From: Longimicrobiales bacterium | GTDB taxonomy: Bacteria; Gemmatimonadota; Gemmatimonadetes; Longimicrobiales; Gaopeijiaceae | NCBI GenBank assembly: GCA_965249725.1 | Contig: OZ252251.1 | Span: 480,001-544,000 of the forward strand | DNA length: 64,000 nucleotides | Reading direction: 5' to 3' | Part shown: positions 13,519 to 53,430 of the stretch, piece after piece | Position numbering within the stretch: the first letter of the stretch is position 1 | How the letters are laid out: each line of letters opens with the position of its first letter | Position numbers and translations under genes: made by a program | Notes under the pieces: model-generated | What the model was told of the DNA's origin: nothing | Databases searched by the model: none | The model's input: the letters and a program-made list of their open reading frames with translations, nothing else

Positions 13519-14526
13519 GCGGGGCGACTATCGGGCGATCCATACAGTGCTCCTGGAGAGCCCCGAGTTCGTGGACATGAGCGCGCACGCGCAATTGATC
13601 TGGTTCCACCTGAAGCTGCGCCTTGGGGCCACGGGGATCGACGTCATTCCGGCTGCGGAGGCGGTCCTATCCGAGGCGACGAACCTGCCACCCGAAGACG
13701 TCCGAAACGCTCTCTTCGAGCTTCAAGGCGAATCCCCTTCGGAGGGGATACCCAATCCCATACCGGAGGGGATACCCAATCCCCCTCGAATGGGATGGCT
13801 GATGCGTGAACGCAACGTTTTCTGGCTGCGCAACGCTCTGAAGTTCGAGCCGAGCCGGACGCTCACGAACGACAACCACCGCAAGAATGTAATGAAGCAC
13901 CTTTGCGGCTTGCCTAAACTCAAGGTTGTCAACGACTTCGCGGATTACTACGAGCTCGTCAGGCCTTTCCCGGACCTATCCCCTCCCCCATCCCCTCAGG
14001 TATCCCCTCCCCCATCCCCTCCGAAGGGGATACCCGATCCCCTACCCGATCGGAAGAACGGGAACCGGATACGGAAGAACGGAATACGGAAGAACGGAAT
14101 ACGGAAGAACGGAATACGGAAGAACGGAATACGGAAGAACGGAATACGGAAAAAGAAAAACCCCCCTATCGGGGGGCCAAAAGAAAAGGGCCGTTGCCGG
14201 GTGATTGGGAACCGAACGCCACCCATTCGGAGATCGCCGGGGCGGCGGGCCGGGATCTCGCGTTGGAGGCCGCGCGGTTCCGCGACCATGCGCTGTCGAA
14301 CGGCCGGGTGCAGATCGACTGGGACGCGGCGTTCCGCAATTGGCTACGCAGCGGGTACGGGCGTCCGGTAGGCAACGGCACGGGACCGCCCGACCCGCTC
14401 GACATCGTCAACGACCGGGCGAACCGCGAGCGCTGGTACGAGATCCGCGACGAGCTGGAAGCCAAGGGCGTGGATGCTGAGGCGGCCGCCAAACAAGGCC
14501 TCGAAATGCTGAGGGCCGAGCTGTGA
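13511..14526 (+). CDS. phage replication initiator with DnaT-like C-terminal domain, split by a frameshift (~13980-14190)
   Basis: N-part in ORF 13454..14371; C-part LPGDWEPN..RFRDH..DWDAAFRNW in ORF 14194..14526; internal iterons. Confidence 0.75.
13732..14151. repeat. putative ori: palindromes ATCCCCT-N4-AGGGGAT plus 5 x 15-bp ACGGAAGAACGGAAT
   Basis: Palindromes at 13732-13749 and 14014-14031, extra half sites, tandem array 14071-14145. Confidence 0.7.
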
Positions 14527-28547: not shown

Positions 28548-31209
28548 ATGGCTACGCTAGGCCGTCTGCACGTCGACCTGATCGCCAACACCCAGGCGTT
28601 CCAGAAGGGCCTCGCAGGCGCACAGAAATCGTTCCAGTCCGTCGGGCGATCGATGGCCAATGTCGGCAAGTCGCTGTCGGCGGGAGTGACGCTCCCGATC
28701 GTCGGCGTCGGTGTCGCAGCATTCAAGATGGCGGCCGACTCGGCGGAAGCGGCCTCGAAGATGCAGGCCGTGTTCGGTGGCGCCACACAGGACCTGAACG
28801 CCTGGATCGCCGATCTGCGGGATACTATCCCGGAGACCACAGCGAGCCTTCAGGGCATGACTTCCGGGATTGGGGACCTCCTGGTCCCGCTCGGGATCGC
28901 GCCCGACAAGGCGCAGGACATGACCAAGAGTGTGGTCAAGCTCGCAGGCGATCTCGCGTCGTTCAACAACATCCCTATGGCCGAAGCGCTCGAGCGCATC
29001 CGCTCCGGGCTCGTCGGCCAGAACGAGCCCCTGTTGAACTTCGGCGTGGCCATCGACGCGGCGGGAGTGAAAGCCCGGGCCCTGTCGATGGGCCTCATCC
29101 AACAGGGCGAGGATCTCGACGCAGCCAGCCGAGCCCAAGCCGCTTTCGTGCTCATTGTCGAGGGCACTACGGCGGCCCAAGGGGACGCCGCCAAGACCGC
29201 CGCGTCTGCTGCGAATCAGCTGAAGTTCCTCTGGTCCGAGACGAAGGAGGCCGCTGCCGTGCTCGGCACCGAGCTCCTGCCGGTCATTACCCCACTCATC
29301 ACGAAGGCGGCTGACTTCGCGGAGAACGTCTCCAAGCTAACGGACAGCCAGAAGAAGATGGTCGTCGTGACCGCCGCGGCCGTCGCGGCGCTCGGTCCGT
29401 TCCTCATCGTGCTCGGGTCGATGACGGGCGGGTTCGGTTCGCTCCTGGTCGTCGCCGACGAAGATCCCGGCCGCCATAACAGCTATCAAGGTTGCGGTCC
29501 TGGCGGCGAACCCGGTCACGCTCGCGATCGTCGCGGCCATCGGCGTGCTCACTGCGGCGTTCGTCCTCCTGGATTCGGAGGGACGAGCCAAGGTGCTCGG
29601 CGCGCTCAAGAAGATGGCCGATAAGTTCAAGGCCTTCACCGCACCGATAGCGAACATGGTCAAGGCCGTCGGCCGCATGACCCTGCAGTTCATCGGCCTC
29701 TGGCTGGAGGTACAGGCGACTGTTCTCGCGATCGTCGAGGCCATCGCGACGGGTATTTGGGATTGGTTCGTCGAGTGGCTCGCCCCGCTCGGCCAATGGC
29801 TGTGGGACAAGGTGCTCGAGCCCTTCATCGGAGTGCTCGCGATGGTGGCCAACAAGATCTCCGGGTGGGCCGGCAAGGTCACGGGCTTATTCCGCAGGTT
29901 CCGGAGCAAGGTGACGGGCGAAGAGGTCGAGCCGATGGCCGAGCAGGTGCAGAATCTCTTCAGCGGCATGAAGGACACCGTGACGAACACGGTGACGGGC
30001 ATGAAGGACACCGTGACGAACACGGTGACGGGCATGGCGAGGGCCGTCGTGGGCGCGGTCAAGGGCATGGGAACGGATGTGGTCCCGCCAGTTCAGCAAA
30101 TGCGCCTCGCTGTGGTCGGAGAAGTGATCCAAATGGGTGTCGCCGTTCAGCCGCTGATGGAGAAGATGAAGGCGAACGTCACGGTGCCGTTGATCGACGC
30201 CGGCACCCAAGCGCAGATGTCGATGACGGCGATGAAGGACGCCATCGCCGGGCCTGGCGGGATCCTTAGTGAATTCGGTGGCGATACGGGCAAGAGGGTC
30301 CAGGCCATCGTCAGCAACGTCACGGGCAAGTGGGGCGCGCTACGTGGCGTGCTGGAGCGGGGCGATTTCGATGTCTCTGGGTTCACAGCCCTCAAGGAAT
30401 CGGGCCTGAAAATCCTAGGCGGTCTGCTGAGCAAGGCCGGCGGGATCGCCAAGAAGCTGTTCGGGCTGTTTAAGGGCGGTGGTGGCTTGTTCGGCAAGAT
30501 CGGCGGCCTGTTTAAGGGCGGCCTCGGCAAGATCGGCGGCGCGGTGCTGTCGGGGCTCGGTTCCGTCGGCAGTGCAGCGGCCGGCGTACTCTCGGCGGTC
30601 GCACCTGTACTCTCGGCGGCCGTGCCCGTGCTTGCAATCGCCGGGGCTGGCTATTTGGGCTTCAAAGGCATCAAGGCGCTAACGGGAGCCGGGGCCAGCC
30701 AACGCTTCACCGAAGAGGAGAAGCGCCAGCTCGGCGAATCGAATGCTGCGATTGCTGGTCGTCGCGGAGAGGCAGAGGGGCTCGGCCTTATACGGCCCCT
30801 CTGGACCGCAGCCGACGCCAAAGACCTGGGCGGTGTCGGTGGCGAAGTGGGGCGTCTCGGCCTTGGGCTAACGCCGGCCTTCGAGGCCACCAATCAAGCG
30901 GTATCTCGGATCATTGACGGCCAGGCCAGGACCGATAGCCGACTCGACGACGTGAGTGTCCACATCGCCCACGCCGTTTCAGTGCTGGAGCGGATCGCGG
31001 GCCACACGGAGCGTTTCACGTCCCAGATCAGGCGGGTGCGCGAGCGAATTGATCCCGGGTACTACGACGGCCGGATCCATGGCGGAAGCGAGCAACCGCT
31101 GGACGTCATAGTCAACATCAACGTGGACAGTCTGGACAGCGAGTTCGGGCTGGCCCAGCGGCGGACGGAGCGTGTCGTCGGGGGCCGCGGCGGCGACTAC
31201 GGCAAATGA
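28548..31209 (+). CDS. tape measure protein, frameshift near 29458
   Basis: GVTLPIVG, DLASFNN; frame of ORF 29545 is open back to KIPAAITAIK..ANPVTL. Confidence 0.88.
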
Positions 31210-36529: not shown

Positions 36530-37159
36530 ATGCTGCTCGCCCACTGGAGGCTCGTCGCGGTTGGAGCGCTCGCGGCCGCGACCCTGACGCTCTTTGTCTC
36601 GTGGCGTACGGGGATCGAGGAAGCCGCCGCCGCTCGGGCGCTCGCCGAGGCCGCCCAGCAGCGCCTAGAACGCTCTCTCGTCGTCGTTGATAGCCTCAGT
36701 GCCCACAGCGTCCAGCGCGACTCCGTGGCCGCCGAGATCGAACGCGAGCTGGCCACCGAACGAGAAGAGAACCAGAGGATCGAGCAGGCCGCACTGGCGG
36801 CCACCCGACAGGCCGAGGCTCAGGTCGCCCTCACGCTCGACTCGCTCAGGGCCGCACCTTCGCCTAGGCTTGTGGATCAGCTCGAAGCCCAGATCGAGGA
36901 GGAGCGCGAGACACACCGCTCCGTTGTGGCTGCGCTACGGGTTCAGCTCACTACGGCGGACTCCATGACAGTGCTCTGGCGCTCCAGGCACATCGATGCC
37001 GTGAGGCTCAGCGACGCCCAGGCCGTGGCGCTCGAAGAAGCCCAGGCGGCCCTCGCCGCACGGACCGCTCAGAACCAGGGAAGCTGGTATGACCCGGCGG
37101 TCAGCGCCCTCAAGTACGTGGGCGTGTTCGCGGCAGGCTATGCGTTCGCGAATCGGTAG
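36530..37159 (+). CDS. spanin-like protein
   Basis: N-terminal TM, long coiled coil, after lysin. Confidence 0.6.
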   Translation: MLLAHWRLVAVGALAAATLTLFVSWRTGIEEAAAARALAEAAQQRLERSLVVVDSLSAHSVQRDSVAAEIERELATEREENQRIEQAALAATRQAEAQVALTLDSLRAAPSPRLVDQLEAQIEEERETHRSVVAALRVQLTTADSMTVLWRSRHIDAVRLSDAQAVALEEAQAALAARTAQNQGSWYDPAVSALKYVGVFAAGYAFANR

Positions 37160-37493
37160 GCTGAAAGCCCGATTCGATTGCTCGCCGGAGCGCCTGCTGC
37201 ACCCAGGCGTTCAGGCTCACCTTCTCGGCTGCGGCGGCGACGGCTGCGTTCCGATGGAGCTCCGAGTCCATCCTGATACGCAACTCGCCCGTGAACGGCC
37301 TATCGGGCTCGATCCCCTTCTCTTCGCATACCTCGAGGTACTGGTCCACCGCGCGCGTCATGGACTCACGCACTTCGTCGACCGAGCGCCCCTCGAAGTA
37401 GATCGTGTCCTTCAGATCGACGACGTGGCCCGTCAGCCGCTCGATCGTCGGGTCGTACTCGACGACCCCCGTGTACCCCTTGTGCTCAATCAT
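37110..37493 (-). CDS. hicB: HicB antitoxin
   Basis: HKGYTG.VEYD, VDQYLEVCEEKG, FTGELRIRM..ELH. Confidence 0.92.
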   Translation of the reverse strand: MIEHKGYTGVVEYDPTIERLTGHVVDLKDTIYFEGRSVDEVRESMTRAVDQYLEVCEEKGIEPDRPFTGELRIRMDSELHRNAAVAAAAEKVSLNAWVQQALRRAIESGFQPTDSRTHSLPRTRPRT

Positions 37494-37508
37494 GGTCGTG
37501 GAATCCTC

Positions 37509-37754
37509 CTATAGTTCCCCTATCTCTCGCATCCGGCCGCGCACCCGCTTCACGAGACCCAGGCCACACTCCTTCTGCGGGTGCGGGCGGTCAACCGTGA
37601 ATGGTCGGCCTTGGATCGTGAAGGTGACGGTTGATCCGTGGCCCTCTTTCACATCGCTGGCCAGTGACCCCAGCAGCGCCTCGACCTTCGTCCAGTGCAG
37701 GCCCGGGTTCAGCCTGTCGACCTGCTCCAGCGCCTTGCGATGTTTCTTCTTCAT
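37509..37754 (-). CDS. hicA: HicA toxin
   Basis: KKHRKAL, WTKVEALL, EGHGS, RPHPQKE. Confidence 0.85.
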   Translation of the reverse strand: MKKKHRKALEQVDRLNPGLHWTKVEALLGSLASDVKEGHGSTVTFTIQGRPFTVDRPHPQKECGLGLVKRVRGRMREIGEL

Positions 37755-37760
37755 GGTGTC

Positions 37761-37800
37761 ATGATACAACACCATACGGTCGGTGTCAAAGCTTGACACC
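37761..37800 (-). promoter_or_regulatory. hicAB promoter with operator palindrome
   Basis: TTGACA-N17-TATCAT; GGTGTCAA-AGC-TTGACACC over -35. Confidence 0.75.
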
Positions 37801-37914
37801 GCAACGTTCTAGCAGGTCAACGACCGCGGGTTGCTCGCATTCGGACGCCCGATTGAGTTCGGCGTCGGCTCACCCAGGCCCCTCGCCCTCGTACTCCGGC
37901 ACCCGGCCAAGGCA

Positions 37915-38073
37915 GTGAGGGTCATCGATGCTCAGGCCACGGCGCTCCAAGAGGCCCAGGCGGCGCTCGCCGCACGGATCGCCCAGAGCCAAGGCAGCTG
38001 GTCCGACCCGGTGGTCGGGGTCCTCCGGTACGCGGGGGTGTTCGCCGTTGGGTATGCGTTGGCGAGTCGGTGA
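37915..38073 (+). pseudogene. orphan second 3' end of the spanin-like gene
   Basis: Colinear with 37001-37159; 37/52 aa identical by hand count. Confidence 0.9.
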
Positions 38074-38159
38074 GGCGGGATTGTGCCCACGCAGTGACAG
38101 GACTCAATGTCCCACATAACTGACTCGCCAAGCGGACGCTTCAAGGTCCATCGACACCA

Positions 38160-40374
38160 TCATGACTCCTGGTCCTCTGCCATACCACCATGTGGCCGAG
38201 CGTCCGTACTGGCTGTCATGAACGTCGGGTCCCATTCTCGCGCTTCCTTTCTTCTTTCCAAGTCCTCTCTGCGCTGGGCTTCTATCGCTTTCTTTATGTT
38301 TTCCAAGCGCTCTAATGGTTCCCCTCCCGGTATGTCCCAGCTGGGAATGTCATAATGTGTCCGGAGGTCATTAGCGATCTGCCCAGCGGTTAGACCCAGC
38401 TGGGCGTATTGAAGCTGGCGTTCTTCATAGCATTCTTCGCCGTGCGGAGGACTGGATTCATATTCGAACACATTGCTGATCATACTCTCGGCTGATGCCG
38501 CCTTTGCGGGCAAGGAAAGAGCACGATACATCAGGTCATGGCTGATGGATTCCCAATCAACGTCCTCAGGATAGGCTAGAGATGGTGTGGGAGCGTGGGA
38601 GATGTGAGGATTCACGGGACCAGGATAGCGGAGCCTGTCAACGCCAGTGAGACACTCTTGGGAATTAATTAGAGAGCAATCTCCTGTGTCGTGAGGGAGG
38701 GGGTTGGAGGATTGATCCAGACGGCCTCCGGGAGCGGTTTGGGCTTCGGCTCACCGGAGACGAAGCGGTCGGGATGAGCGGCCCAGGCCTCGCGTAGCAC
38801 GGCCTGCCTGCCGGCGATGACCTGATCTGCATTCCCGAAGTGGACCTGTTCGGGGGTCAGCATCGAGATACCACCATGGCGGTGCTCGGCGTTGTACCAG
38901 CGGAAGAACGAGCGACAGAAGGTTTTGGCCTGGCCCTGATCCTCGAACCGTCCAGGAAACGAGGGATGGTACTTCAAGGTCTTGAACTGGGCTTCGGAGA
39001 ACGGATTGTCATCCGACACCTGAGGTCGGCTCAGCGAGCGGGTCACCCCGAGATCGGCGAGGAGCTGAGCCGTGCATTGGCTCGTCATCGGAGCTCCTCG
39101 ATCCGAGTGCAAGGTCAGGACCTGGGGCTGGACGCCATGCTTCAGGCAACTCTGCTGGATCAGGCGCCCGGCCAAGGCCGAGCTCTCCCGATCCGCCACC
39201 ATCCATCCCACGATGTAGCGGCTGAAGATGTCCATGATAACGTAGAGGTAGAAGTAGCTCCACTTCCTCGGCCCCAGCAGCCGTGTGATATCCCAGGACC
39301 AGACCTGGCCCGGGCCCGTCGCCATCAACTCGGGTTTCTGGTATTCGGGATGACTCCGCTGCGCTCGGCGCTCTCGAACTGGCACTTGGGAGGCCAGAAC
39401 GCGATACATCGTACGTTCGCTGCACAGGTAGACGTCTTCGTCGAGCAGGGTCGCCACAACCTCGGCCGGGGACCGGTCCACGAATCGCTCCGAACACAGC
39501 GTGTCGAAGACCTTGTCTCGTTCCTTCTCGCTCAAGGCACGGGCTGGGGTCGGGCGGGGCTGCTGATGCCCGGTCGATGGCCTCCGACGACGATAGAACG
39601 TGGCTCGGGCGACCCTGAGCGCATCGCACGCGGGCTTTACCCCTACGTACGTGGCCAGCGCCTCGGCCGCCTTCACGAGTTCGTCCCGTCCTTGAGGCTC
39701 AATCCCAGCAGCCCTGCAACTTTTCCCTGGACGTCGAGGATCAGGCGCGCCTTCTCGAGTTCCTTCTCCAGGCGAGTGTTCTCGCGCTCCAGCTTGCGCA
39801 CTTTCCCCTCCAGCGGATTCCGTTCGCTCGGCTTTCGACCTCGTCTCTTCGACAGCGCTCTCAGCGACCCACTCCGCACCGCCTTGCGCCATGTCGTCAG
39901 GTGCGACGAGTACAAGCCCTCCCGTCGCAGGAGTCGCCCTACCTCTCCCGGCTCCGTGCACCGGTCCGCTTCTTCGACGACCCGCAGCTTGTACGACGGA
40001 CTAAACCGTCGGCGCGTCGGCTTATCTACCACCTCCGCGTCCGGAGCAGCTGCCGCGCTTCGCTTACCCTCCCAGGTTAGTGGGGCGATTCCATTCTCTT
40101 CCATTCTCTCTCGGTGTCTCAGCATCCTCGGTTTCTCTGCCTTCGCCCTACTCTAATTCTTTACTCGTTCCGTGTCTCACCTAAGTTGGCAGAGAGGGTA
40201 GCCCGCAACTTCGACACAGCCCTGGACATACTCCTTAAGGGTGCAGACGACGCGGATAGCCAGATACTTCGCACGCCTCGTACGATTGCGCTTCTCGAAC
40301 AGCCAATCCTTGAATCCGACCATACCAACGCCGACCACAGCTCCTATAAGCGCCCCGAAGAACCCCTCGTTCAC
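38160..40374 (-). pseudogene. membrane-anchored cargo gene interrupted by IS
   Basis: Removing IS and one TAG joins CVEVAGY to PGPVNPHISH in frame. Confidence 0.85.
38629..40198 (-). mobile_element. IS3-family insertion sequence
   Basis: orfA 39673-40125, DDE orfB ending 38669 (WSWDIT, HSDRG, DNPFSE); IRs TGTCAAC..GTGAGACAC / TGCCAAC..GTGAGACAC; TAG duplicated. Confidence 0.93.
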
Positions 40375-40424
40375 CGTTGAGGCCTCCTATTCGTATTCGT
40401 CAATGGCTACCTAAGTGTACGCCT

Positions 40425-40476
40425 CACCCCAGATCCGTGTGCGCCCACCAGACGACGCGGCCCCATGATTCCTGGC
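40425..40476 (-). repeat. copy of cI 3' end (RVVWWAHTDLG*)
   Basis: Matches 44132-44177 with two 1-nt insertions. Confidence 0.9.
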
Positions 40477-40559
40477 GATCCACGCCTCTCCTTTATCCCC
40501 GTAGTGCGGTTCATGGGGGTGCACTCGGTGCCGTCCATTCTCAAGAATGGCCTCAACGC

Positions 40560-41510
40560 TCACATCTCATTGGGGTACCATCCCGAGCCCTGTTGGATGA
40601 TCTCATTCGTCCAGGCCAGCAACAGGCAGAGCCCCTTGTTCTGCACGCCCCACTTCCGTCGCGCGTCGCCACCGTAGACATCCGCGAAGCCCTTCATCTG
40701 GTCGTGGTAGAATGCGATGTGTTTCGAGTACGACGTGCCCGTGCCCGTATAGAGACTTAGGTCTGAGAATCCGCTAGTCCTCTCGGCAAGAGATGTGAAG
40801 ACCGTCTTCCCATCTATCCACTCAATGACTTCAGTAATCTTAATGTCATCAAACTTCCCCAAATCAATGAGGCAGTTGATCTCACGGATGAGGTCGGTCA
40901 GCACGCGAAGCCGGACGGCTGGTAATGCGGTGGTAGCGTCTATTCGTCCCTTCATTTGCGCCACCAAATCCCCATAGCGGCTAGCGTCTGTCGGCGAGAT
41001 CCTAATGCCCGCCGTATGAGCGATGTGGTTTTTCACGGAACGCAAGCCTGAAATGGTTCTGTTCTCGGACGGAGTTAGAATATTTTGGTACTCAAGATAA
41101 TCGATCGGTCGATCATGCGGACGCTGAAAGGTCTCACCGTCCGGCAAGAGTTCTCCGACCTTTCTTCCGGCAGACTCCTCTAGAGATCTCCATGACTCCA
41201 ATACGAGGCTAACTCCGGTCCCCTCCTCATCAGGGTGAGGTCGGTCAGGAACAGAACTGCTTGAGTCTCCGCTCACATCGGCCTCTATGGCGGTCAGCTG
41301 AAGAGAAACGTACTTCCCCCCGAATGTTAACCGCTGAGCGCGTTCGATTACTGATCCAATCTGATCTCTGAACACTAGTAAGCCGACCCCTATCACCCCC
41401 GGCCACGCCAGTGCTTCGACCAGATCGATCATATGGTCCGGCTGCAACAGCCAGAAGCCAAGGAAGAGCGCAGCCGCTACGGGCAGCACGACCGCGGCGA
41501 GGGTCTTCAC
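40560..41510 (-). CDS. membrane-anchored cargo protein with HEPN-like motif
   Basis: RBS AAAGGAGG + GTG; LAWP TM; LRSVKNHIAH; lower GC. Confidence 0.7.
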   Translation of the reverse strand: MKTLAAVVLPVAAALFLGFWLLQPDHMIDLVEALAWPGVIGVGLLVFRDQIGSVIERAQRLTFGGKYVSLQLTAIEADVSGDSSSSVPDRPHPDEEGTGVSLVLESWRSLEESAGRKVGELLPDGETFQRPHDRPIDYLEYQNILTPSENRTISGLRSVKNHIAHTAGIRISPTDASRYGDLVAQMKGRIDATTALPAVRLRVLTDLIREINCLIDLGKFDDIKITEVIEWIDGKTVFTSLAERTSGFSDLSLYTGTGTSYSKHIAFYHDQMKGFADVYGGDARRKWGVQNKGLCLLLAWTNEIIQQGSGWYPNEM

Positions 41511-41551
41511 AGCGTCCTCCTTTCCGGGCTCACTTGCCTGCCCCTCACCCC

Positions 41552-41593
41552 TCAATCCGTGTGCGCCCACCAGACGACGCGGCCCATGATTCG
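41552..41593 (-). repeat. copy of cI 3' end (RIMGRVVWWAHTD*)
   Basis: Same peptide as cI end, synonymous differences only. Confidence 0.93.
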
Positions 41594-41624
41594 AAGATGA
41601 TTTCTCGCCCTTCACGCGGTAGTC

Positions 41625-42506
41625 TCACCTCTCGCAAACCACACCATCCCCATCTCCGTCACGCATATAGCGATACGCCGGGTGGCCGCGGCGGACCGGT
41701 GCGATCCCGTGGCGCCGAGCCTCGGCACAGGTGATCCTGCCATTGCCGTTGTCGTCCCACTGTCGCAGCGCATCGGTTGTTGGCACCGGGCTCGGAGCCA
41801 CACGGCTTGGTGCGCTGGTTGCTTGTGTGACGACCAGACTGGTTGAAGCACAGCCGTTCAGCACGCTCTCCAGGGAGGTAGCCTCAGTCGCGTCGATGGT
41901 GAGAGCGTACTTCCGCCGAACCTCGACGACCCGATCTGCGAACCAGCACTGGTTGAGGCTAGGCAGCCACTGGGCCGCATCCTTGTCGCTCTTCTCGTAT
42001 CGGTTCACCGCGGGACTGGCGAGCGTGAGGTTCAGGATGTCGGTTGCGAAACGGCGCCGCGTGGCGTCATCGGCAGCACACAGTCCGCTGTCATGCGCCT
42101 CGGACCGGGCCACGATGTGCTCAATATCGGTGTCGCCCCGACCGGAGAACCACTGGCCGGTGTAAGGGCCATAGACGCCCCCCAGCGAGCTGATAATCTT
42201 CAATTCAACCGACTGCGGGTAACGGTAGTCATCCGCGTCGTATTGTGAACAGCGCACCTCGGGCGCGACCACAAGGCCGCGCCATCTCGTTTGTGAAGGG
42301 TGCGGCAACACAGATGCATCGGCACCGGATTGGCCAGCAAGCACGCGGGCCACTCGGTCGTAGCAGTCTAGCCGCTCCGACACGCTTTGGATGGCTGCGC
42401 ATTGCGTGATCTGTGATGCCAGCCCTTCCTGGGCGGAAACGGGGCCTGGCCCAGCGACGGCAGCCCCAACGGCCGCGAGCAGGAGCGTACACGCCGCTCG
42501 CGTCAT
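41625..42506 (-). CDS. secreted DUF1524/HNH nuclease with excalibur Ca-binding domain
   Basis: Signal peptide, DIEHIVARSEA, NLTLA..VN..KSDKD, RDGDGDGVVCE. Confidence 0.85.
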   Translation of the reverse strand: MTRAACTLLLAAVGAAVAGPGPVSAQEGLASQITQCAAIQSVSERLDCYDRVARVLAGQSGADASVLPHPSQTRWRGLVVAPEVRCSQYDADDYRYPQSVELKIISSLGGVYGPYTGQWFSGRGDTDIEHIVARSEAHDSGLCAADDATRRRFATDILNLTLASPAVNRYEKSDKDAAQWLPSLNQCWFADRVVEVRRKYALTIDATEATSLESVLNGCASTSLVVTQATSAPSRVAPSPVPTTDALRQWDDNGNGRITCAEARRHGIAPVRRGHPAYRYMRDGDGDGVVCER

Positions 42507-42588
42507 CCCTGTTCCTCCTCCTCCTCTCAAGCGGAAGCTCAATATGTTCCTTTCCTTCCCTTGTCTCTATTCACGAACGATCCTCGCC

Positions 42589-42639
42589 TCACCATGATCG
42601 TCGCATCGATTGTCCAAACCATATGACCTGCCCGCGTGG
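42589..42639 (-). repeat. probable divergent S24-repressor 3' end (RGQVIWFGQSMRRSW*)
   Basis: Peptide resembles S24 terminal strand; same position relative to next cargo gene. Confidence 0.5.
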
Positions 42640-42676
42640 CTGGAGCACCCCCCTCAGCGTGTGCGGAACTCGCCGC

Positions 42677-44110
42677 TCATCCGCCCCCACTGATGCGGGC
42701 GAATAGGGTCGTGCTGAGTTCCTGCGCCTCAGCGATTTGGGCAGCGGTCATACGTGGCTGGAGATCTGCCTTTACACTGACGGCGCCCTCGTGCCCTTGC
42801 GCGGCGGCAAGGTTGAGCCAGGCATAGGCCAGGACGTAATTCTCGGGCACGCCTTCACCGTTGGCGTACATGAGACCCAGGTTGTTCTGAGCCGGGGCGT
42901 TCCCTTGCTCGGCGGCCATACGATACCAGCGCACGGCCTCAGCATCATCTTCGGGCACGCCTTCGCCGTTGGCGTAAATGACACCCAGGTTCTTCTGAGC
43001 CAGGGCGATCCCTTGCTCGGCGGCCATACGATACCAGCGCACGGCCTCAGCAATATCTTTGGGCACGCCTTCACCGTTGGCGTACATATACCCCAGGAGG
43101 GACTGAGCCAGGGCGTTCCCTTGCTCGGCGGCCATACGAAGCCAGCGCACGGCCTCAGCATCATCTTCGGGCACGCCTTCACCGTTGGCGTACATATACC
43201 CCAGGAGGGACTGAGCCGGGGCGTTCCCTTGCTCGGCGGCCATACGAAGCCAGCGCACGGCCTCAGCATCATCTTCGGGCACGCCTTCACCGTTGGCGTA
43301 CATATACCCCAGGAGGGACTGAGCCGGGGCGTTCCCTTGCTCGGCGGCCATACGAAGCCAGCGCACGGCCTCAGCATCATCTTCGGGCACGCCTTCACCG
43401 TTGGCGTACATATACCCCAGGAGGGACTGAGCCGGGGCGAATCCTTGCTCGGCGGCCATACGAAACCAGCGCACGGCCTCAGCATCGTCTTCGGGCACGC
43501 CTTCGCCGTTGTCGTACATGACACCCAGGTTGTACTGAGCCAGGGCCAATCCTTGCTCGGCGGCCATACGATACCAGCGCACGGCCTCAGCATCATCTTC
43601 GGGCACGCCTTCGCCGTTGACGTACATGACACCCAGGTTGAACTGAGCCAGGGCCAATCCTTGCTCGGCGGCCATACGATACCAGCGCACGGCCTCAGCA
43701 TCATCTTCGGGCACGCCTTCGCCGTTGACGTACATGAAACCCAGGCTGGACTGAGCCGAGGCCAATCCTTGCTCGGCGGCCATACGAAACCAGCGCACGG
43801 CCTCAGCATCGTCTTCGGGCACGCCTTCGCCGTTGTCGTACATGACACCCAGGTTGTACTGAGCCGAGGCCAATCCTTGCTCGGCGGCCATACGAAACCA
43901 GCGCACGGCCTCAGCATCGTCTTCGGGCACGCCTTCGCCGTTGTCGTACATGACACCCAGGTTGTACTGAGCCAGGGCGTTCCCTTGCTTGGCTAAGCGT
44001 CGGGTTTCCAAGAGGGACGAGTCCTGCCCGACCGCCAGGGTAAGTAGCGCTGCCACCGCCAATGCGGAAAAAGCAAGGACCGCCGTTGCGATCCTCTGTG
44101 TTCGTGTCAT
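42677..44110 (-). CDS. secreted Sel1-like repeat protein, 11 x 36 aa
   Basis: Signal peptide; AQxxLGxMYxNGEGVPEDDAEAVRWxRMAAEQG; 108-bp tandem DNA repeats. Confidence 0.95.
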   Translation of the reverse strand: MTRTQRIATAVLAFSALAVAALLTLAVGQDSSLLETRRLAKQGNALAQYNLGVMYDNGEGVPEDDAEAVRWFRMAAEQGLASAQYNLGVMYDNGEGVPEDDAEAVRWFRMAAEQGLASAQSSLGFMYVNGEGVPEDDAEAVRWYRMAAEQGLALAQFNLGVMYVNGEGVPEDDAEAVRWYRMAAEQGLALAQYNLGVMYDNGEGVPEDDAEAVRWFRMAAEQGFAPAQSLLGYMYANGEGVPEDDAEAVRWLRMAAEQGNAPAQSLLGYMYANGEGVPEDDAEAVRWLRMAAEQGNAPAQSLLGYMYANGEGVPEDDAEAVRWLRMAAEQGNALAQSLLGYMYANGEGVPKDIAEAVRWYRMAAEQGIALAQKNLGVIYANGEGVPEDDAEAVRWYRMAAEQGNAPAQNNLGLMYANGEGVPENYVLAYAWLNLAAAQGHEGAVSVKADLQPRMTAAQIAEAQELSTTLFARISGGG

Positions 44111-44131
44111 CGCTTCTTCCTCACGTCTTCC

Positions 44132-44968
44132 TCAGTCCGTGTGCGCCCACCATACAACGCGGCCCATGATTCTGGCCAAGTCGTCTAACAGCTGAGGCTC
44201 GTAGCTATCGTTGTCACTGTCCGCCCACCAGCGGTGGTCGCGTTTGCGAAGGCGCTTGACCAGTAGGCCGTCTCCCGCCTGAAGTGCGTAGATCTTGCCG
44301 CTGCGTGGGGATGTGTGAATCTCATGGACCAGTGCCGCGTCTCCGGCGAATATCGTGCGCTCCATACTATCGCCCAATACATCGACCAGGAAGACGTCCT
44401 TGGCCTTCAGCCTTCGCTTGCGCAGCCAGCTTGTGCGGAATTTGACCTCACCTGCGACGGGTTCTTGCTCGGCGAACGTGCCGGTTCCCGCTGCCAGCCG
44501 AATATCCTCGGGCGCGTACCGTCTGACGGTCTCGTAGTCTTCGTCCCGCCAGCCTGGCGCGGATTGGATTGGCGACACGTCGGGGTCTGGGGTCTCGGCC
44601 GTAGCGGCGGCCTGCGCCCGCAGGCGGTCGAGTTCTTCATCTCTGCGGTCCAGCTCGTTTTCGGTGCGCTGGAGCATGGCTTCCAGCTCGGTCCGCCTCT
44701 TCCATTCCTCGCGCACCCTCTTCTCAGCTTCGCGCGTGCCCTCTACTGCGGGCGTGGGGTCGTCGGTGAGGCCCGCCAGGTAGTCGAGCGAGACGTCGAG
44801 AATGCGCGCGGCCCGGACTGCTCCATCAAGGAGCATGGCTGACCGATCGTGCTCCACATGCCCGATCATTGTCCGGTCATATCTCTCGCCAAGCTCCATT
44901 GCCAGTTGGCGTTGCGACAACCCGGCCCGTCTTCGTGCCTGAACTAGGCGCTCTCCAATTGCAATCAT
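44132..44968 (-). CDS. cI: CI-like repressor (XRE HTH + S24 peptidase)
   Basis: GLSQRQLA..VSLDYL; VLGDSME, VKRL. Confidence 0.93.
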   Translation of the reverse strand: MIAIGERLVQARRRAGLSQRQLAMELGERYDRTMIGHVEHDRSAMLLDGAVRAARILDVSLDYLAGLTDDPTPAVEGTREAEKRVREEWKRRTELEAMLQRTENELDRRDEELDRLRAQAAATAETPDPDVSPIQSAPGWRDEDYETVRRYAPEDIRLAAGTGTFAEQEPVAGEVKFRTSWLRKRRLKAKDVFLVDVLGDSMERTIFAGDAALVHEIHTSPRSGKIYALQAGDGLLVKRLRKRDHRWWADSDNDSYEPQLLDDLARIMGRVVWWAHTD

Positions 44969-45001
44969 AACTCTGAACAAATAACAGCATCAGCCGCCCT
45001 G

Positions 45002-45090: not shown

Positions 45091-45315
45091 ATGCACTCAG
45101 AAATCAAGGCCCGGATCTTCCAACTGGGCATCAGCCAAGAGCGAGTCGCTCTTGCGGCTGGCTACGACCCAACCCTCTTCAGCCGCATCCTGAACGGGAT
45201 ACGACCGACGCCCCCCGACTTCGTGGAGCGGGTCAACGCGACACTCGACCGGCTAGAGGCGGCCGAGCGTGCGGCCACCGAGGCTCGCGAGCGGGTGCTG
45301 GCGGGGGGCGCGTGA
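45091..45315 (+). CDS. cro: Cro-like HTH protein
   Basis: ISQERVA..FSRILNG; divergent from cI. Confidence 0.85.
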   Translation: MHSEIKARIFQLGISQERVALAAGYDPTLFSRILNGIRPTPPDFVERVNATLDRLEAAERAATEARERVLAGGA

Positions 45316-46743: not shown

Positions 46744-47640
46744 ATGACAACGGCAACCCTTAACCCGGGATGGACGCGCGACCTAGCGCTGTCCGACTAC
46801 TTGGCGCTCCCGGCGATGAGCGCGTCGTTGCTGGAAGAATTCAGGCGGTGCCCCGAGCATTACCGCTACACGCTCCAGGCGCCACGCAGCGCGACCCCGG
46901 CGCTAGAGCGGGGCACGGCGCTACACCTGGCGACCCTGGAGCCCGAGACGTTCGAGGGCCGTTACGTGACGCTGGGCCGGTGCGAGGGGAAGAGGAAGGA
47001 CGGAGAGCGCTGCGCATACCAGGGCTCGGTCTACCGGGACGGCCAGAGCTTCTGCAAGTCCCACGACCCAGGCAAGGGCGAAGCGCCGGATGATCCGACG
47101 ATCGCGGTGCTCGCGGAGGCCGACTACGCATCGGTGCTCGGCATGCGAGATGCGGTGCTAAGGCACCCACGATCCGGCAGCCTGTTCGAGGGCCGTGGCG
47201 AATTGGAGGTCACGGGCGTCTTTGAGGACCCCGAGACCGGGGTGCTTTGCAAGATCCGGCCCGATCGGTTGGTCGAGCGTGCCAACCTGTCGGTGAACCT
47301 CAAGAGCACGCGCGACGCTTCACCGTGGGTATTCGGCTCGGATGCCGCGCGGCGTGGCTACCACCGCAGGGAGGCATTCTATCGGCGTGGACTGGCGGCT
47401 CTCGGCACCGAGTGCACGGCGTCCGCGCTGGTCACCGTCGAATCGGCTCCACCCTACTCGGTGGCCTGCTACCTCATCGACGAGGATGATCTGCGCATCA
47501 CGAGCGACGAGGTCACGCGGCTTCTCGATCACTTCAAGTACTGCGAAGCCGAGGACTACTGGCCGGGCTACGGCGACGAGTTCCTGACGCTGCGCCTACC
47601 TGGATGGGCCACCCGCAACGAGGAGGACACCGATGTCTAG
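46744..47640 (+). CDS. RecE/ExoVIII-like PD-(D/E)XK exonuclease (DUF3799)
   Basis: GTALH..LEPE, CKIRPDR..NLKST, YWPGY. Confidence 0.88.
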   Translation: MTTATLNPGWTRDLALSDYLALPAMSASLLEEFRRCPEHYRYTLQAPRSATPALERGTALHLATLEPETFEGRYVTLGRCEGKRKDGERCAYQGSVYRDGQSFCKSHDPGKGEAPDDPTIAVLAEADYASVLGMRDAVLRHPRSGSLFEGRGELEVTGVFEDPETGVLCKIRPDRLVERANLSVNLKSTRDASPWVFGSDAARRGYHRREAFYRRGLAALGTECTASALVTVESAPPYSVACYLIDEDDLRITSDEVTRLLDHFKYCEAEDYWPGYGDEFLTLRLPGWATRNEEDTDV

Positions 47641-48370
47641 CAACGGAACTGCGCTGACTCGCACCGAGCCCGGAATCCTATCGACCGACACGGAAGAGGG
47701 CTGGGATCTGGTAGCTCGCAAGGCCAAGGCGCTATCGGAGAGTTCGATCATCCCGAGCGACTACCGGGACAATGCCTCGAACGTGCTTGTGGCGATGGAG
47801 ATGGCCCAGCGCACTCAGGTCCCGGTCCTGGCCGTGATGCAGAACCTTCACATCATCAACGGCCGTCCGAGCTGGAGCGCTCAGTTCCTGATCGCTGCCG
47901 TGAACCGTTCGGGGCGCTTCTCTCCCCTGCGCTTCCGCTTCGAGGGCACGGAGGGCGAGGACTCATGGGGCTGCCGAGCCGTGGCGGTGGACCTAGGGGA
48001 TGGCGAGGAGCTGATCGGAACACTGGTCACGGTCGGGATGGCGAAGGCGGAGGGCTGGGCGACGAAGAACGGCTCGAAGTGGAAGACGATGCCGGAGCAG
48101 ATGCTGCGTTACCGTGCCGCCGCATTCTGGTCCCGGACGCACTGCCCGGAACTCGCGGTAGGGCTTCACACAGCCGAGGAAGCCGAGGACATCGGCCCCT
48201 CGATCGCCGACCGGAAGGCCGCGCTCGCCGAGCAGCTCGACGGTGGCGATCCACCGGAGGTGATCGAGGCCGAAGAGTTGGAACAAGCCGAGCCCGAGCC
48301 TACCGACGACGGCGAACTGCCGCTCGGGGATCACCACACCCGGCCGACCGCCCAGGTGGAGGGCCACTAG
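47633..48370 (+). CDS. RecT-like ssDNA annealing protein
   Basis: VMQNLHIINGRPSWS, SKWKTMPEQMLRYRAA. Confidence 0.85.
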   Translation: MSSNGTALTRTEPGILSTDTEEGWDLVARKAKALSESSIIPSDYRDNASNVLVAMEMAQRTQVPVLAVMQNLHIINGRPSWSAQFLIAAVNRSGRFSPLRFRFEGTEGEDSWGCRAVAVDLGDGEELIGTLVTVGMAKAEGWATKNGSKWKTMPEQMLRYRAAAFWSRTHCPELAVGLHTAEEAEDIGPSIADRKAALAEQLDGGDPPEVIEAEELEQAEPEPTDDGELPLGDHHTRPTAQVEGH

Positions 48371-48482: not shown

Positions 48483-48744
48483 CATGGAGCCGTCCACGGA
48501 GACACAGGCTGGCACAGGCGCGGCGCCCAAGATCCCGCCGCCCGGCGAGGGGCGAGCGCGGGTGTTCGGCGAGCTGCGTTCGTGTCGGAGCACAATTGCT
48601 CGGCTTGAGGCCAAAAGACGCAGGGCGAATGACGACGAGGACGAGCGGTTCCGGCTGGGCGCCGACATCGAGAGTATGGTCGCCGAGCTTGCCAAGCTGG
48701 AACGCCTCGCGCTGGCGATCCATGAAGAGGAGCTGGCCACGTGA
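48478..48744 (+). CDS. hypothetical coiled-coil protein
   Basis: Coupled overlaps. Confidence 0.55.
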   Translation: MSMEPSTETQAGTGAAPKIPPPGEGRARVFGELRSCRSTIARLEAKRRRANDDEDERFRLGADIESMVAELAKLERLALAIHEEELAT

Positions 48745-49877
48745 AAGCAACCGTCGAAGCCAAGGCGTTACGCACCGCACTGGCCACTGTTTCCAAGGTC
48801 CAGGCGTCCCGCTCCGTTTTGCCGGTGCTGGACATGATCCATGTTGCGGCCCGCGAGGACGGGTTGGAGCTCCAGGCCACGGACCTGCAGCGTTGGGGCT
48901 CTGTGCAGGTCGAGTGCGACGTGTGCGAGGAAGGCCGGATGTTGATCCGGCCCGACGGCCTGTTGGCGCTCGCCGAGCACGCATCCGGCGAGACGATCGA
49001 GTTGTCTGGAAACGGTGAAGGGCCACGCACGGCGCGCGGCGGTTCCGCCTCGGTGACCCTGCCCACGCTATCGGTTAGCGACTGGCCTCTGTTCGGGGAC
49101 ATCGAGTCGGCGGGAGAGGTGGAGGTGCCGGCATCCGTACTACGCGACGCGCTGGACCGGACCACCTGGGCCGCGTCCACCGAGGACGTCGCCCGCCCGC
49201 TCCTCGCCTGTGTGCATTTTCGGGAGCGCGAAGGGCACCTCACAGTCGAAGCCACGAGCGGCCACGTGCTCGGCCGGTACGACTCACGGATCGAGGCGCC
49301 CGCCGGGCTGTCCCTGATGATTGCGCGACAGGACGCACCTCTGCTGGCGGCATTGGCCAAGCGCGCGGGCGATAAGGATGTACGCTTTCGCTGGGATCGC
49401 CGCTGGGCCGATTTCGCCGCTGGGTACGAGACGCTTCGGGTATCGCAAAAGGAAGGGAAGTATCCCGACCTCGATCGTGTGACCCCTGACGCCGCCGATT
49501 GCCCGGTCAGCGCCGAGCTGGAAGCGACATCCGTTGCCAGAGCCTGTGGGCTGGCTGTTTCCGTCATGCGCGAGGATTTCTTCCGGCTTCAGGTCGATCT
49601 CTACGACGGTAGGGCGCTCTTCCGCTCGGACTCCACAGACAGGGGCGGATACGAGGAGACGCTCGCCGCCGACGTTCAGGGAGACATCACGTTCGCTGTC
49701 AACGCTGTGTATCTGCGCCAGATCGCGCGCAGTGTCAGTGGACGCATGATCCTGAGATTGAGCGAAAAATTGAGCGAAGCCACTAGGCCGATACGCATCG
49801 AACCCGTAGACGGCGACCCGGTGGTCTTTGTGGCAGTACCTCTGCGGGCAGAACACTCCATCCCGAGGCCGGTGTGA
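48741..49877 (+). CDS. dnaN: phage DNA polymerase III beta-clamp homolog
   Basis: LQATDL, AASTEDVARPLL, EATSGHVL, GKYPD, VNAVYL; 378 aa. Confidence 0.85.
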   Translation: MKATVEAKALRTALATVSKVQASRSVLPVLDMIHVAAREDGLELQATDLQRWGSVQVECDVCEEGRMLIRPDGLLALAEHASGETIELSGNGEGPRTARGGSASVTLPTLSVSDWPLFGDIESAGEVEVPASVLRDALDRTTWAASTEDVARPLLACVHFREREGHLTVEATSGHVLGRYDSRIEAPAGLSLMIARQDAPLLAALAKRAGDKDVRFRWDRRWADFAAGYETLRVSQKEGKYPDLDRVTPDAADCPVSAELEATSVARACGLAVSVMREDFFRLQVDLYDGRALFRSDSTDRGGYEETLAADVQGDITFAVNAVYLRQIARSVSGRMILRLSEKLSEATRPIRIEPVDGDPVVFVAVPLRAEHSIPRPV

Positions 49878-51641: not shown

Positions 51642-51887
51642 GTGAGCAGAACGAAAACCCCAGAGCAGTACGAGGCCGAGTACAACTGGCTCTCCCCGAA
51701 ACAGGCGGCAGAGCGCATCGGCGGAATGTCCACCGGCTTCGTCCTCAAGATGATCCACGAAGGCCACCTGAAGTCTCCGGGGGTGCTGAACGTGTCGCGC
51801 TCTGGCAAGGCACGCTACCGAATCTCGCCGAAGGCTGTCGATCGCTTCGTCCAAGAGTGTGAGGAGCTGGTGGGCAGTGAGTCCTAG
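51642..51887 (+). CDS. xis: excisionase-like HTH protein
   Basis: WLSPKQAAERIG..YRIS..VDRF, before integrase. Confidence 0.8.
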   Translation: MSRTKTPEQYEAEYNWLSPKQAAERIGGMSTGFVLKMIHEGHLKSPGVLNVSRSGKARYRISPKAVDRFVQECEELVGSES

Positions 51888-53127
51888 AAAGCGCTCACGT
51901 GCCCCCAAGGGCCTCGTATGGCGAGCTGGCCGCGCCTACTTCGACCGTAGGCACTCGCGGTTCAACGGCGGCCGCCTGGCGATCTCGCTCAGGACCGGCG
52001 ATCGGGATGTGGCCACCGAGCGCCATACCGTTTTGACTCAGCTCATGGATCGTGGCGACTGGAACGTGCTTGAGGCGATCCGCCGTGGCGACATGCACAT
52101 CACCGACGCTCAGGCCGCGCTACGTAACGGCGACGCCACCAAGCTGCGGCGCATGGGCTCTGATTCGCCTAGGCTCGGGCCGGCCGTCGAGAGGTTCCTG
52201 AGGCTCAAAGAGGCCACACGCGGCAGGGCCACCATCAAGAAGTATCGGACCGTTCTCGGGCACCTTGAGAGAGACGTCGGCCCGGACTTCCCTATGGAAG
52301 AGCTGACGGTCGACGAGGCGCGCGCGTACCTGCACGGCCCGAAAGCAAGCACAGCGGGGCGTCCGTGGGCACCTGCCAGCCAAGGGGCTTGCCAGGTCGT
52401 GTGCGGGGCACTCTGGAGCATGGTCATGGACGAGGAGGCCGATCTGCTCGCTCGCCGCAACGTACAGCCCGCGATCCGTAGCAACCCCTGGAAGGGCATC
52501 GACATGCCCGAGATCCGGCCCACGCGGGCCGTGTTCCTGACTCCGCCGGAGTGGGCGGACCTGGATCGTAGCATGATTGGGACCCCACACCGCGCCATGA
52601 TCGCGATTGCGTTCCTCGCGGGCCTGCGCCAAGGCGAGATACTACATCTAAGGACTGGCGTTGATGTCCTTCTAGATGGCAGCGAACCACTGATCCGGGT
52701 ACAGTCCCGAAAGGATGTTTACTCCTGGAGGCCGAAGACGCGGCGTGGTGAAAGGGACGTACCGATCACCGAGAGCCTCGTCACGATCATCGAAGATCAC
52801 ATCCGCAGAGGGTATGCCGGGGAGCGGTACTTGATTCTGAGCCCTCATCGCGGGGACCAGCCTGTGGCGGCCGGCACCTCGGCTCGCTGGACCCAGGACG
52901 CCTTCGAGCTGGCCGGGATCAAGTACGGAAGGGAAGGCGACGGGCTCACCTTACACAGTGGCCGTCACACCTATGCCTCATGGCTGGCCCAGGACGGCGT
53001 GCCGCTCAACGTGATCGCCACCCTGCTAGGTGACACGACCAAGGTCGTCGAGGAGACCTACGCCCACCTTATTCCTGACACCTACCGGGCCGCCGTTCAG
53101 TACATCGAAAGGAGGATTCAGGCGTGA
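51877..53127 (+). CDS. int: tyrosine integrase
   Basis: GLRQGE, PKT, HSGRHT, LLGD, TYAH. Confidence 0.93.
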   Translation: MSPRKRSRAPKGLVWRAGRAYFDRRHSRFNGGRLAISLRTGDRDVATERHTVLTQLMDRGDWNVLEAIRRGDMHITDAQAALRNGDATKLRRMGSDSPRLGPAVERFLRLKEATRGRATIKKYRTVLGHLERDVGPDFPMEELTVDEARAYLHGPKASTAGRPWAPASQGACQVVCGALWSMVMDEEADLLARRNVQPAIRSNPWKGIDMPEIRPTRAVFLTPPEWADLDRSMIGTPHRAMIAIAFLAGLRQGEILHLRTGVDVLLDGSEPLIRVQSRKDVYSWRPKTRRGERDVPITESLVTIIEDHIRRGYAGERYLILSPHRGDQPVAAGTSARWTQDAFELAGIKYGREGDGLTLHSGRHTYASWLAQDGVPLNVIATLLGDTTKVVEETYAHLIPDTYRAAVQYIERRIQA

Positions 53128-53189
53128 CAGCAAAAACAACGGTTTGCCATAAGCCAGGCCACAGAGTGTTGTATTTGCTCGATTGTGGT

Positions 53190-53430
53190 AGAACGCACAG
53201 ATCATCTCGACACCCGGGGGATACACGAGCAAGACTCGTTCGCCGGGCTCGAGGGGTTGGGTCCGATGGAGGTGCGATGCAATGTCGGCCGCCCTACGCA
53301 AGAACGCTTCGTAGGTGTACGACTCCGTGGCCCCGCACTCTGAGTCGAGGAAGGCGAAGAGGAGCTTGTCGGGGTGCTTCTCGGCGTGGGCGCGAAGGGG
53401 GGTCAAAACCGACATGCCATCTATGTTCAT
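53190..53430 (-). pseudogene. 5' fragment of fatty acyl-AMP ligase cut at right prophage junction
   Basis: PDKLLFAFLD..YTY..PGERVLLVYPPGVEMICAF then unrelated sequence. Confidence 0.85.

Follow-up and report, generated by a model that had tools for sequence, protein, structure and literature searches.

The subject of this study is a row of gene remnants in a prophage of a Longimicrobiales bacterium (GenBank assembly GCA_965249725.1, contig OZ252251.1, positions 480,001 to 544,000 of the forward strand). This whole stretch of 64,000 nucleotides is called the window, and coordinates without a further label refer to it; G000 denotes the genome of the window, C2 and C3 its other contigs, and L with a number a fetched locus. 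Behind the cI-like repressor gene of the prophage lie four accessory (cargo) genes in the same orientation, separated by three short stubs that repeat the 3' tail of a repressor gene, each stub standing ahead of one cargo gene. Such a layout had been described in an original prediction made from the letters of the DNA, and the intact tail and all three stubs were indeed found, on the minus strand and co-oriented with cI. The features, read from cI onwards, are the following.

44132..44980, minus strand: cI-like repressor with helix-turn-helix (HTH) and S24 domains (Pfam PF00717, 2.5e-19, and PF01381; phrog_4, 1.8e-35); the start may instead be the ATG at 44968
44132..44172, minus strand: tail (3') of the intact type-B cI, to which the stubs correspond
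42677..44110, minus strand: cargo 1, Sel1-repeat protein with an N-terminal hydrophobic leader (PF08238, 11 stretches)
42589..42633, minus strand: stub of a different repressor type, plus a 20-bp leader (42634-42653) in common with a stub of the C3 prophage
41625..42506, minus strand: cargo 2, putative secreted nuclease with GmrSD_C and Excalibur domains (Pfam)
41552..41593, minus strand: type-B cI stub, same peptide as the cI tail with synonymous changes only
40560..41510, minus strand: cargo 3, with N-terminal hydrophobic segments, low G+C content (55%) and a possible DUF4145-type domain
40493..40518, minus strand: decayed remnant of the start of a DNA-methylase cassette, matching the intact methylase start in L035 and two remnants in L002
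40424..40471, minus strand: type-B cI stub that reads through to end in HTDLG and stop, with 1 bp inserted upstream
38160..40374, minus strand: cargo 4, PDC-S67-like candidate defence gene split by an insertion sequence (IS); both halves match PDLC05063 (PADLOC candidate model PDC-S67)

The 16-bp core of the tail is found twice in the 6,970-bp accessory slot and in none of 200 base-shuffled versions of it. In the whole 4.16-Mb genome there are seven copies of this core at no more than one mismatch, all of them cI ends or members of arrays downstream of cI, which excludes a dispersed host repeat, one of the outcomes that the original prediction had named as fatal to it. The divergent stub at 42589-42633 was missed by a profile made from intact tails alone; it aligns to a stub of the C3 prophage (77% identity over 78 bp, E 1e-8) and, judged from its sequence, is a genuine second tail type that groups with tails ending in GxVMWxG.

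Most of the stubs that could be compared resemble the cI gene of another phage better than that of their own, as the original prediction had suggested in preference to a local duplication. The stub at 41552 is identical to the cI of the co-resident C2 prophage at 38/38 positions and to its own cI at 35/38; for the stub at 40424 the values are 30/30 and 28/30. When 11 longer stubs were set against eight intact type-B cI genes, five of the six type-B stubs lying behind a type-B resident cI were nearer to a foreign cI and the sixth gave a tie, while a further four type-B stubs lie behind a type-C cI and one has no cI in the fetched DNA. A counter-case is L091, in which a 60-bp exact copy of the resident cI tail follows a four-gene block. 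The stubs range from about 20 to 140 bp. Where they begin is not fixed, as the left end lies 0 to 117 bp ahead of the core, and one stub in L092 is cut before its core.

Arrays of this kind recur in sister prophages and in relatives. Three prophages of G000 share a 7.6-kb early module at 98.5-99.4% identity, but the cI genes of the two sisters are 73% and 41% identical to that of the window and their cargo also differs, which indicates that recombination partners co-reside in one genome. The C2 prophage is without stubs. That of C3, with late genes 96.7% identical to those of the window, has eight stubs of two types, which separate a HAD-family gene, a DUF6694 lipoprotein, a Bor-like lipoprotein and others. 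In a protein search of 201 genomes of the family, close cI relatives were found in G000, G198 and G009, and any match at all in 19; the exact tail pattern occurs in just 4 of 314 family genomes, so this tail type is narrow. A genome scan provided further loci from Gemmatimonadales, Bryobacterales and Binatia; among named genomes the nearest relatives were Gemmatimonadales and Longimicrobiales MAGs, which makes a host from Gemmatimonadota probable. A second tail pattern led to arrays in a Bryobacterales genome. With a DNA profile built from intact cI tails, 37 stubs were detected in 11 of 16 cI-downstream regions from two phyla, every one co-oriented and none on the opposite strand; this survey covered 107 kb of six genomes (four with stubs), with region limits set by hand and two duplicate loci counted once.

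Units of stub and gene are also found in fetched DNA that holds no cI, such as a HicAB pair between two stubs in L074 and a double stub in G058. In a separate prophage region of the window's genome (L076, G000:C2:86420-87700), a unit of stub, HicAB and late-gene end follows a head-morphogenesis-like gene, and its HicAB shares 96% identity with a HicAB of the L034 array. Comparison of the gene behind cI among relatives showed that cargo sets vary, in agreement with the original prediction, to which a fixed set would have been contrary. Across the arrays, the cargo includes lipoprotein-like and secreted proteins, toxin-antitoxin pairs, restriction-modification genes, AbiU2, SocA/Panacea, RelA/SpoT-domain proteins and PADLOC candidates (53 open reading frames (ORFs) were scanned for families and 22 for PADLOC, many without a match).

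A pattern of stub reuse is seen in pairs of arrays. In L035 an amidohydrolase cassette comes straight after the intact cI, and in L034 it follows a 138-bp stub, with 99.93% identity over 1,457 bp; thus the same cassette occupies both positions, which the original prediction had required of at least some cargo. L034 and L036 have the preceding gene and the stub in common and diverge at the end of the stub; L037 and L038 do the same after a shared type-C cI plus stub, and L034 and L035 after a shared methylase remnant plus stub. Conversely, three downstream units each have differing upstream parts, with the change at the tail. The junction of intact cI and foreign stub in L092 reappears as a stub-stub pair inside L091 (97.7% over 130 bp), from which we infer that double stubs may be fossils of immunity swaps. 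There were 46 ends of shared blocks altogether. After 14 that touch an IS or the edge of a region were set aside, 14 of the 32 scored ends lie within a cI tail or stub, where 11.7% would be expected. As these ends are not independent of one another, the p value of 6e-6 overstates the effect, and collapsing repeats by hand leaves about 10 of 22.

Other genes have left remnants as well. Stubs of the 3' end of the last late gene occur in the window (37912-38076) and in four related arrays, in one case immediately ahead of a cI stub, and pieces of the methylase start and end and of a nuclease end are also present. Two further elements were observed in these regions. A leader of about 30 bp with a run of C precedes lipoprotein-like cargo in L033, L034, L036, L037, L038 and L039, and marks many of the boundaries that are not at stubs. 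An imperfect palindrome of about 48 bp, which is not cI sequence, often lies ahead of type-A stubs or their decayed form (L033 9579-9633, L034 12326-12392, L039 17721-17778, L002 9256-9312, L075 about 9950).

The slot belongs to an apparently complete temperate prophage, which extends from about 12.2 to 53.2 kb of the window. Genes for terminase, portal, capsid and tail (named from ORF translations) are followed by the minus-strand slot and then by cI, cro, RecE/RecT, a beta-clamp homologue and the integrase. The features that frame the slot or bear on recombination are these.

36530..37159, plus strand: final gene of the late operon, the far boundary of the slot, without a family match
37110..37789, minus strand: HicA-HicB cassette, flanked by the late-gene stub and the intact late gene, with a promoter-like site of its own
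37912..38076, plus strand: stub matching the last late gene at its 3' end (81% over 165 bp), a mirror-image scar from the other side of the slot
45091..45315, plus strand: Cro-like HTH gene, divergent from cI
46744..48370, plus strand: RecE-like exonuclease VIII and RecT-like annealing protein (phrog_412, 4.8e-64; phrog_561, 2.5e-74)
51859..53127, plus strand: tyrosine integrase (PF00589) at the right end of the prophage; homology to the sister prophages stops at about 53194

The pair of RecE/RecT-like genes, proposed as the agent in the original prediction, is thus present in the prophage. Our favoured explanation, which we hold to be probable though by no means certain, is that rare illegitimate joins close to the cI stop codon create the junctions, which short-homology recombination later uses again. 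On this view, the slot that extends from cI to the late-operon end is an accessory-gene hotspot in a family of related temperate phages. An illegitimate crossover would fuse the end of a cargo gene, or a new heteroimmune cI, to a point shortly before the cI stop of another phage; the recombinant would retain the cargo of both phages, and the orphan cI tail would stay behind as a scar whose length varies. Each scar would then offer 20-140 bp of homology to every related cI end, and out-of-register short-homology recombination between co-resident or superinfecting phages, plausibly by RecE/RecT, would re-sort, add and remove gene units. Phage Rad52-like recombinases including RecT act on short diverged homology, with a minimum of about 30 bp for Red-beta, according to the portion of PMC3945230 considered here. 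Growth of an array would be a by-product of mosaicism and of selection for its cargo, which, given its orientation, is probably read through from the cI promoter in the lysogen.

Several observations weigh against this explanation. Five of the 16 cI-downstream regions have no stub at all, and the sample was small and related, with limits chosen by the analyst. Several stubs are shorter than 30 bp. More scored block ends lie outside cI tails and stubs (18 of 32) than within them, and a joint by which L035 differs from L034 is inside a methylase gene, where exact microhomology amounts to about 1 bp. In 33 copies, the four bases behind the core come in 14 variants that are tied to neither neighbouring unit, a greater variability than the model needs. 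Among the eight same-lineage prophages whose early region was examined, a RecE-like match is present in all (8/8) and a RecT-like one in six, and these belong to more than one family. Finally, no excision joint or circle of this locus was found among the assembled contigs of the sequencing runs compared. The many ends outside stubs, together with the variable left ends and the equivalent remnants of the last late gene, of methylase start and end and of a nuclease end, would suit a simpler account, in which each stub is a one-off illegitimate join kept by selection without preferential reuse; the decay of stubs, exemplified by the 1-bp insertion at 40424-40471 and by the L092 stub cut before its core, points the same way. 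That account is unlikely in our judgement, as it leaves aside the three pairs that share a left junction and diverge at the end of the stub, the three units that follow different upstream parts, and the enrichment of block ends in stubs.

Another possibility is a site-specific system, in which a putative recombinase would cut just after the core at the cI stop and insert circular cassettes, with variable overlap bases left behind. The right ends of the stubs do cluster at the stop codon, positions 18-21 are variable (entropy of 1.15-1.68 bits) between conserved flanks and travel with neither neighbour, and the exact resident tail after four genes in L091 could be read likewise. However, several unrelated tail types are in use, the conservation of the core was partly built into the search, and one synonymous site is nearly as variable (1.24 bits). 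The four variable bases belong to the last codons of cI, which are free to vary because a back-up stop follows, and they could be unlinked from their neighbours by heteroduplex annealing. Neither an attC-like fold nor paired R boxes were seen, and the likeness to the prophage attachment (att) ends does not exceed 8 bp, so that we regard such a system as rather improbable. The same low credence applies to a broader proposal, that selection has made the repressor 3' end into a gene-capture platform shared by a phage family crossing phyla, with single-gene units that excise as circles and insert at the cI stop through a defined strand exchange in the hypervariable 4-base site. If it were true, new Sel1, lipoprotein and defence genes would come under lysogenic expression in their order of arrival, and an equivalent of the integron would have been built from coding sequence.

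Integrons are defined by the integrase IntI and its sites attI and attC. The arrays resemble them in having co-oriented, mostly single-gene units behind one putative promoter, with variable order and number, but they have no linked IntI, no attC and imprecise unit boundaries. Over the TIGR02249 cut-off, a single gene was found in the genome, on another contig (C3:1028977-1029906), and the prophage integrase is not among the matches; the IS that interrupts cargo 4 has copies about 5 kb away from this integron-integrase gene. None of the 53 cargo ORFs scanned is an integrase. All eight stub folds examined were unremarkable (z from -0.97 to +1.92), and four regions together contained one lone RYYYAAC. 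With left ends at 0-117 bp and most scored block ends elsewhere than in stubs, cassette boundaries are not precise, and remnants of the late gene and of the methylase start play the same part as stubs; an ordered capture machine like an integron, with which the original prediction had compared the array, is thus not supported. Its suggestion of a reusable handle fared better, since the arrays show a pattern of reuse, but not as a uniform handle of about 40 bp, given lengths of about 20-140 bp. As a whole, its interpretation is partly supported.

Other roles for the stubs were also considered. An action of the phage integrase on them was rejected, as they resemble the prophage att ends over no more than those 8 bp. 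A core derived from a tRNA attachment site was rejected too: the best host tRNA differs at 6 of 18 bases, and the likeness was judged a coincidence. Metagenome matches to the core include tRNA 3' ends, found at four of seven loci run in ARAGORN out of 13 distinct ones. At G000:C3:1903222-1906030, about 20 tRNA genes are densely clustered, along with two degenerate copies of tRNA-Pro. Unlike orphan CDI/Rhs modules, the stubs do not provide an alternative functional C-terminal domain with its immunity gene, as they cover only the last 7-45 codons or so and the downstream genes are of unrelated families. A consensus scan for promoters and terminators gave no call on any stub, and found two promoter-like sites only (HicAB and cro), against 1.8 expected.

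Assembled contigs of four of the 13 listed sequencing runs were compared with 40200-42670, a part of the window without cI and Sel1. Runs from three other studies also contain the nuclease unit with flanking stub sequence, and in one case a single contig covers it from stub to stub. Cargo 3 and 4 are not covered in three runs, to which no weight is given. In run X1, which may come from the source sample, six different spacers join the two stub types, one of them equal to that of the C3 array; we read these joints, with their short sides and foreign spacers, as other arrays and not as excisions. No contig spans the whole stretch in the runs compared, and one L091 stub is identical to the resident tail, two points in favour of a local tandem duplication of the cI end or of a collapsed or chimeric assembly. 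Such an origin is nevertheless very improbable, as the window stubs are nearer to other cI genes than to their own, arrays are present in four independently assembled genomes, and the nuclease unit recurs with its flanking stub sequence in those three studies.

Searches farther afield gave no additional arrays. A viral contig collection held no relative by protein or by pattern, a metagenome scan for the core yielded 14 stretches without an array, and 198 records of isolated phages were all below 60% identity, the best listed being about 35%. Thirteen more distant S24 loci, of about 30 distant matches, showed no convincing stubs, a weak control, as the five inspected look like conjugative elements rather than prophages. 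In G005, G190 and G056 (L040-L052), up to eight near-identical S24 repressor genes per genome were noted in conjugative-looking elements with an adjoining TrbC-like gene (by ORF reading), each followed by a different restriction-modification or defence-like cargo and without tail stubs. A phylum-wide PF00717 search (148 of 151 genomes) gave about one top match in each; these were taken as LexA, and the search is hence uninformative on prevalence.

As to the cargo of the window, the names given beforehand to cI (HTH and S24), to Sel1 (11 repeats) and to the nuclease (GmrSD_C and Excalibur) are backed by Pfam. The gene described as IS-broken is just that: IS genes, at about 38628-40199 and multi-copy in the genome, separate two halves that match the same PADLOC model. 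The label 'HEPN-like' for cargo 3 stands as a lead only; this gene has no match in Pfam or PADLOC, and an Atlas score of 0.91 relates it to clusters in which 27% and 11% of members carry DUF4145. The Sel1 protein is 71% identical over its C-terminal 111 amino acids to a short Sel1 cargo gene between stubs of the Bryobacterales array. The gene (42682-44061) consists of eleven to twelve 108-bp units, and its Bryobacterales counterpart of about two. Because several units are near-identical in DNA, a recent intragenic expansion is suggested.

Elsewhere in the prophage, the DNA polymerase III beta-clamp homologue (48741-49877) is 25% identical to the host copy and near-identical in all three sister prophages. 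The integrase is 94-100% identical in seven prophages (window 53128-53205, G000 C2 and C3, L082-L085), which have a conserved end arm followed by GTAGAA, about seven variable bases and often TTC, at seven different host sites; the variable end bases of the window prophage reappear near its left end (12206). This pattern suggests a tyrosine integrase of relaxed specificity with a free overlap region. A tape-measure-like frame is seemingly in two parts (28548-29624 and 29545-31209), and a short tandem RKNGI repeat lies at 13454-14371; a frameshift or an assembly error is possible.

The arrays may be compared with several known systems, as far as these are described in the portions of the cited papers considered here. 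In PeSL (promoter and stem-loop) shuffling of T4-type phages (Arbiol et al. 2010, PMC2839356), short repeats between accessory genes likewise act as linkers for homologous recombination without a dedicated integrase, and its authors also draw the integron comparison. PeSL cassettes carry a promoter and a stem-loop, belong to lytic phages, and mini-circles were shown, whereas the linker here is a coding repressor remnant in temperate phages. The arrays do have a repeated short linker between accessory genes that is enriched at exchange points, but no promoter and terminator stem-loop, as no such call and no stable fold was obtained on stubs. In orphan cdiA-CT/cdiI and Rhs modules (Poole et al. 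2011, PMC3150448), an array likewise lies behind an intact gene, each of its units starts with a 5'-truncated piece of that gene, variable in length, and shared units extend from one conserved motif to the next. Units of the present arrays also begin with a 5'-truncated, variable-length copy of the lead gene. There, however, the homology lies upstream of a variable toxin tip and recombination alters the protein, whereas here the remnant is the invariant end of the gene, and exchange alters the downstream passenger and leaves cI unchanged.

Other phage systems share single traits. Relaxed Rad52-like recombination (PMC3945230), for which RecT was among the enzymes tested, also exchanges DNA between temperate phages and prophages through short diverged homology; the data of that report concern in-register replacement, whereas here out-of-register reuse of scars would stack several units in one slot. 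Defence hotspots of P2 prophages and P4 satellites (PMC13586616) resemble the arrays in their fixed slot, fast turnover and small intergenic pseudogenes as recombination remnants, some of them core-gene homologues; in what is considered of that paper, swapping is described with its mechanism left open and without repeated repressor ends delimiting single-gene units. Recombination at a repressor 3' end is known from the integration-dependent immunity of mycobacteriophage BPs, with attP in that end (PMC4557955), but cI of the window lies 8 kb inside the prophage and its stubs are unlike the prophage ends or any host tRNA. No description of repressor-tail arrays was found in a literature search of partial coverage that excluded supplements. 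The arrays are real and well replicated, and they are a variant of known phage mosaicism, likened to PeSL in working and to orphan CDI (contact-dependent inhibition) modules in build, without the defining features of either or of integrons.

How prophage accessory hotspots gain and reshuffle their genes is unsettled, with conserved linkers on one side and random joins plus selection on the other, a division also found in models of phage mosaicism as linker versus illegitimate recombination (summarised in PMC2839356). The arrays suggest both in one sequence: random joins would make linkers, and the linkers would then be reused. The stubs provide defined substrates of 20-140 bp together with the phage's own RecE/RecT. 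They also delimit accessory units without recourse to annotation, which offers a practical way of mining candidate defence and surface genes. Moreover, they show between which repressor types DNA has been exchanged, in this case across two phyla.

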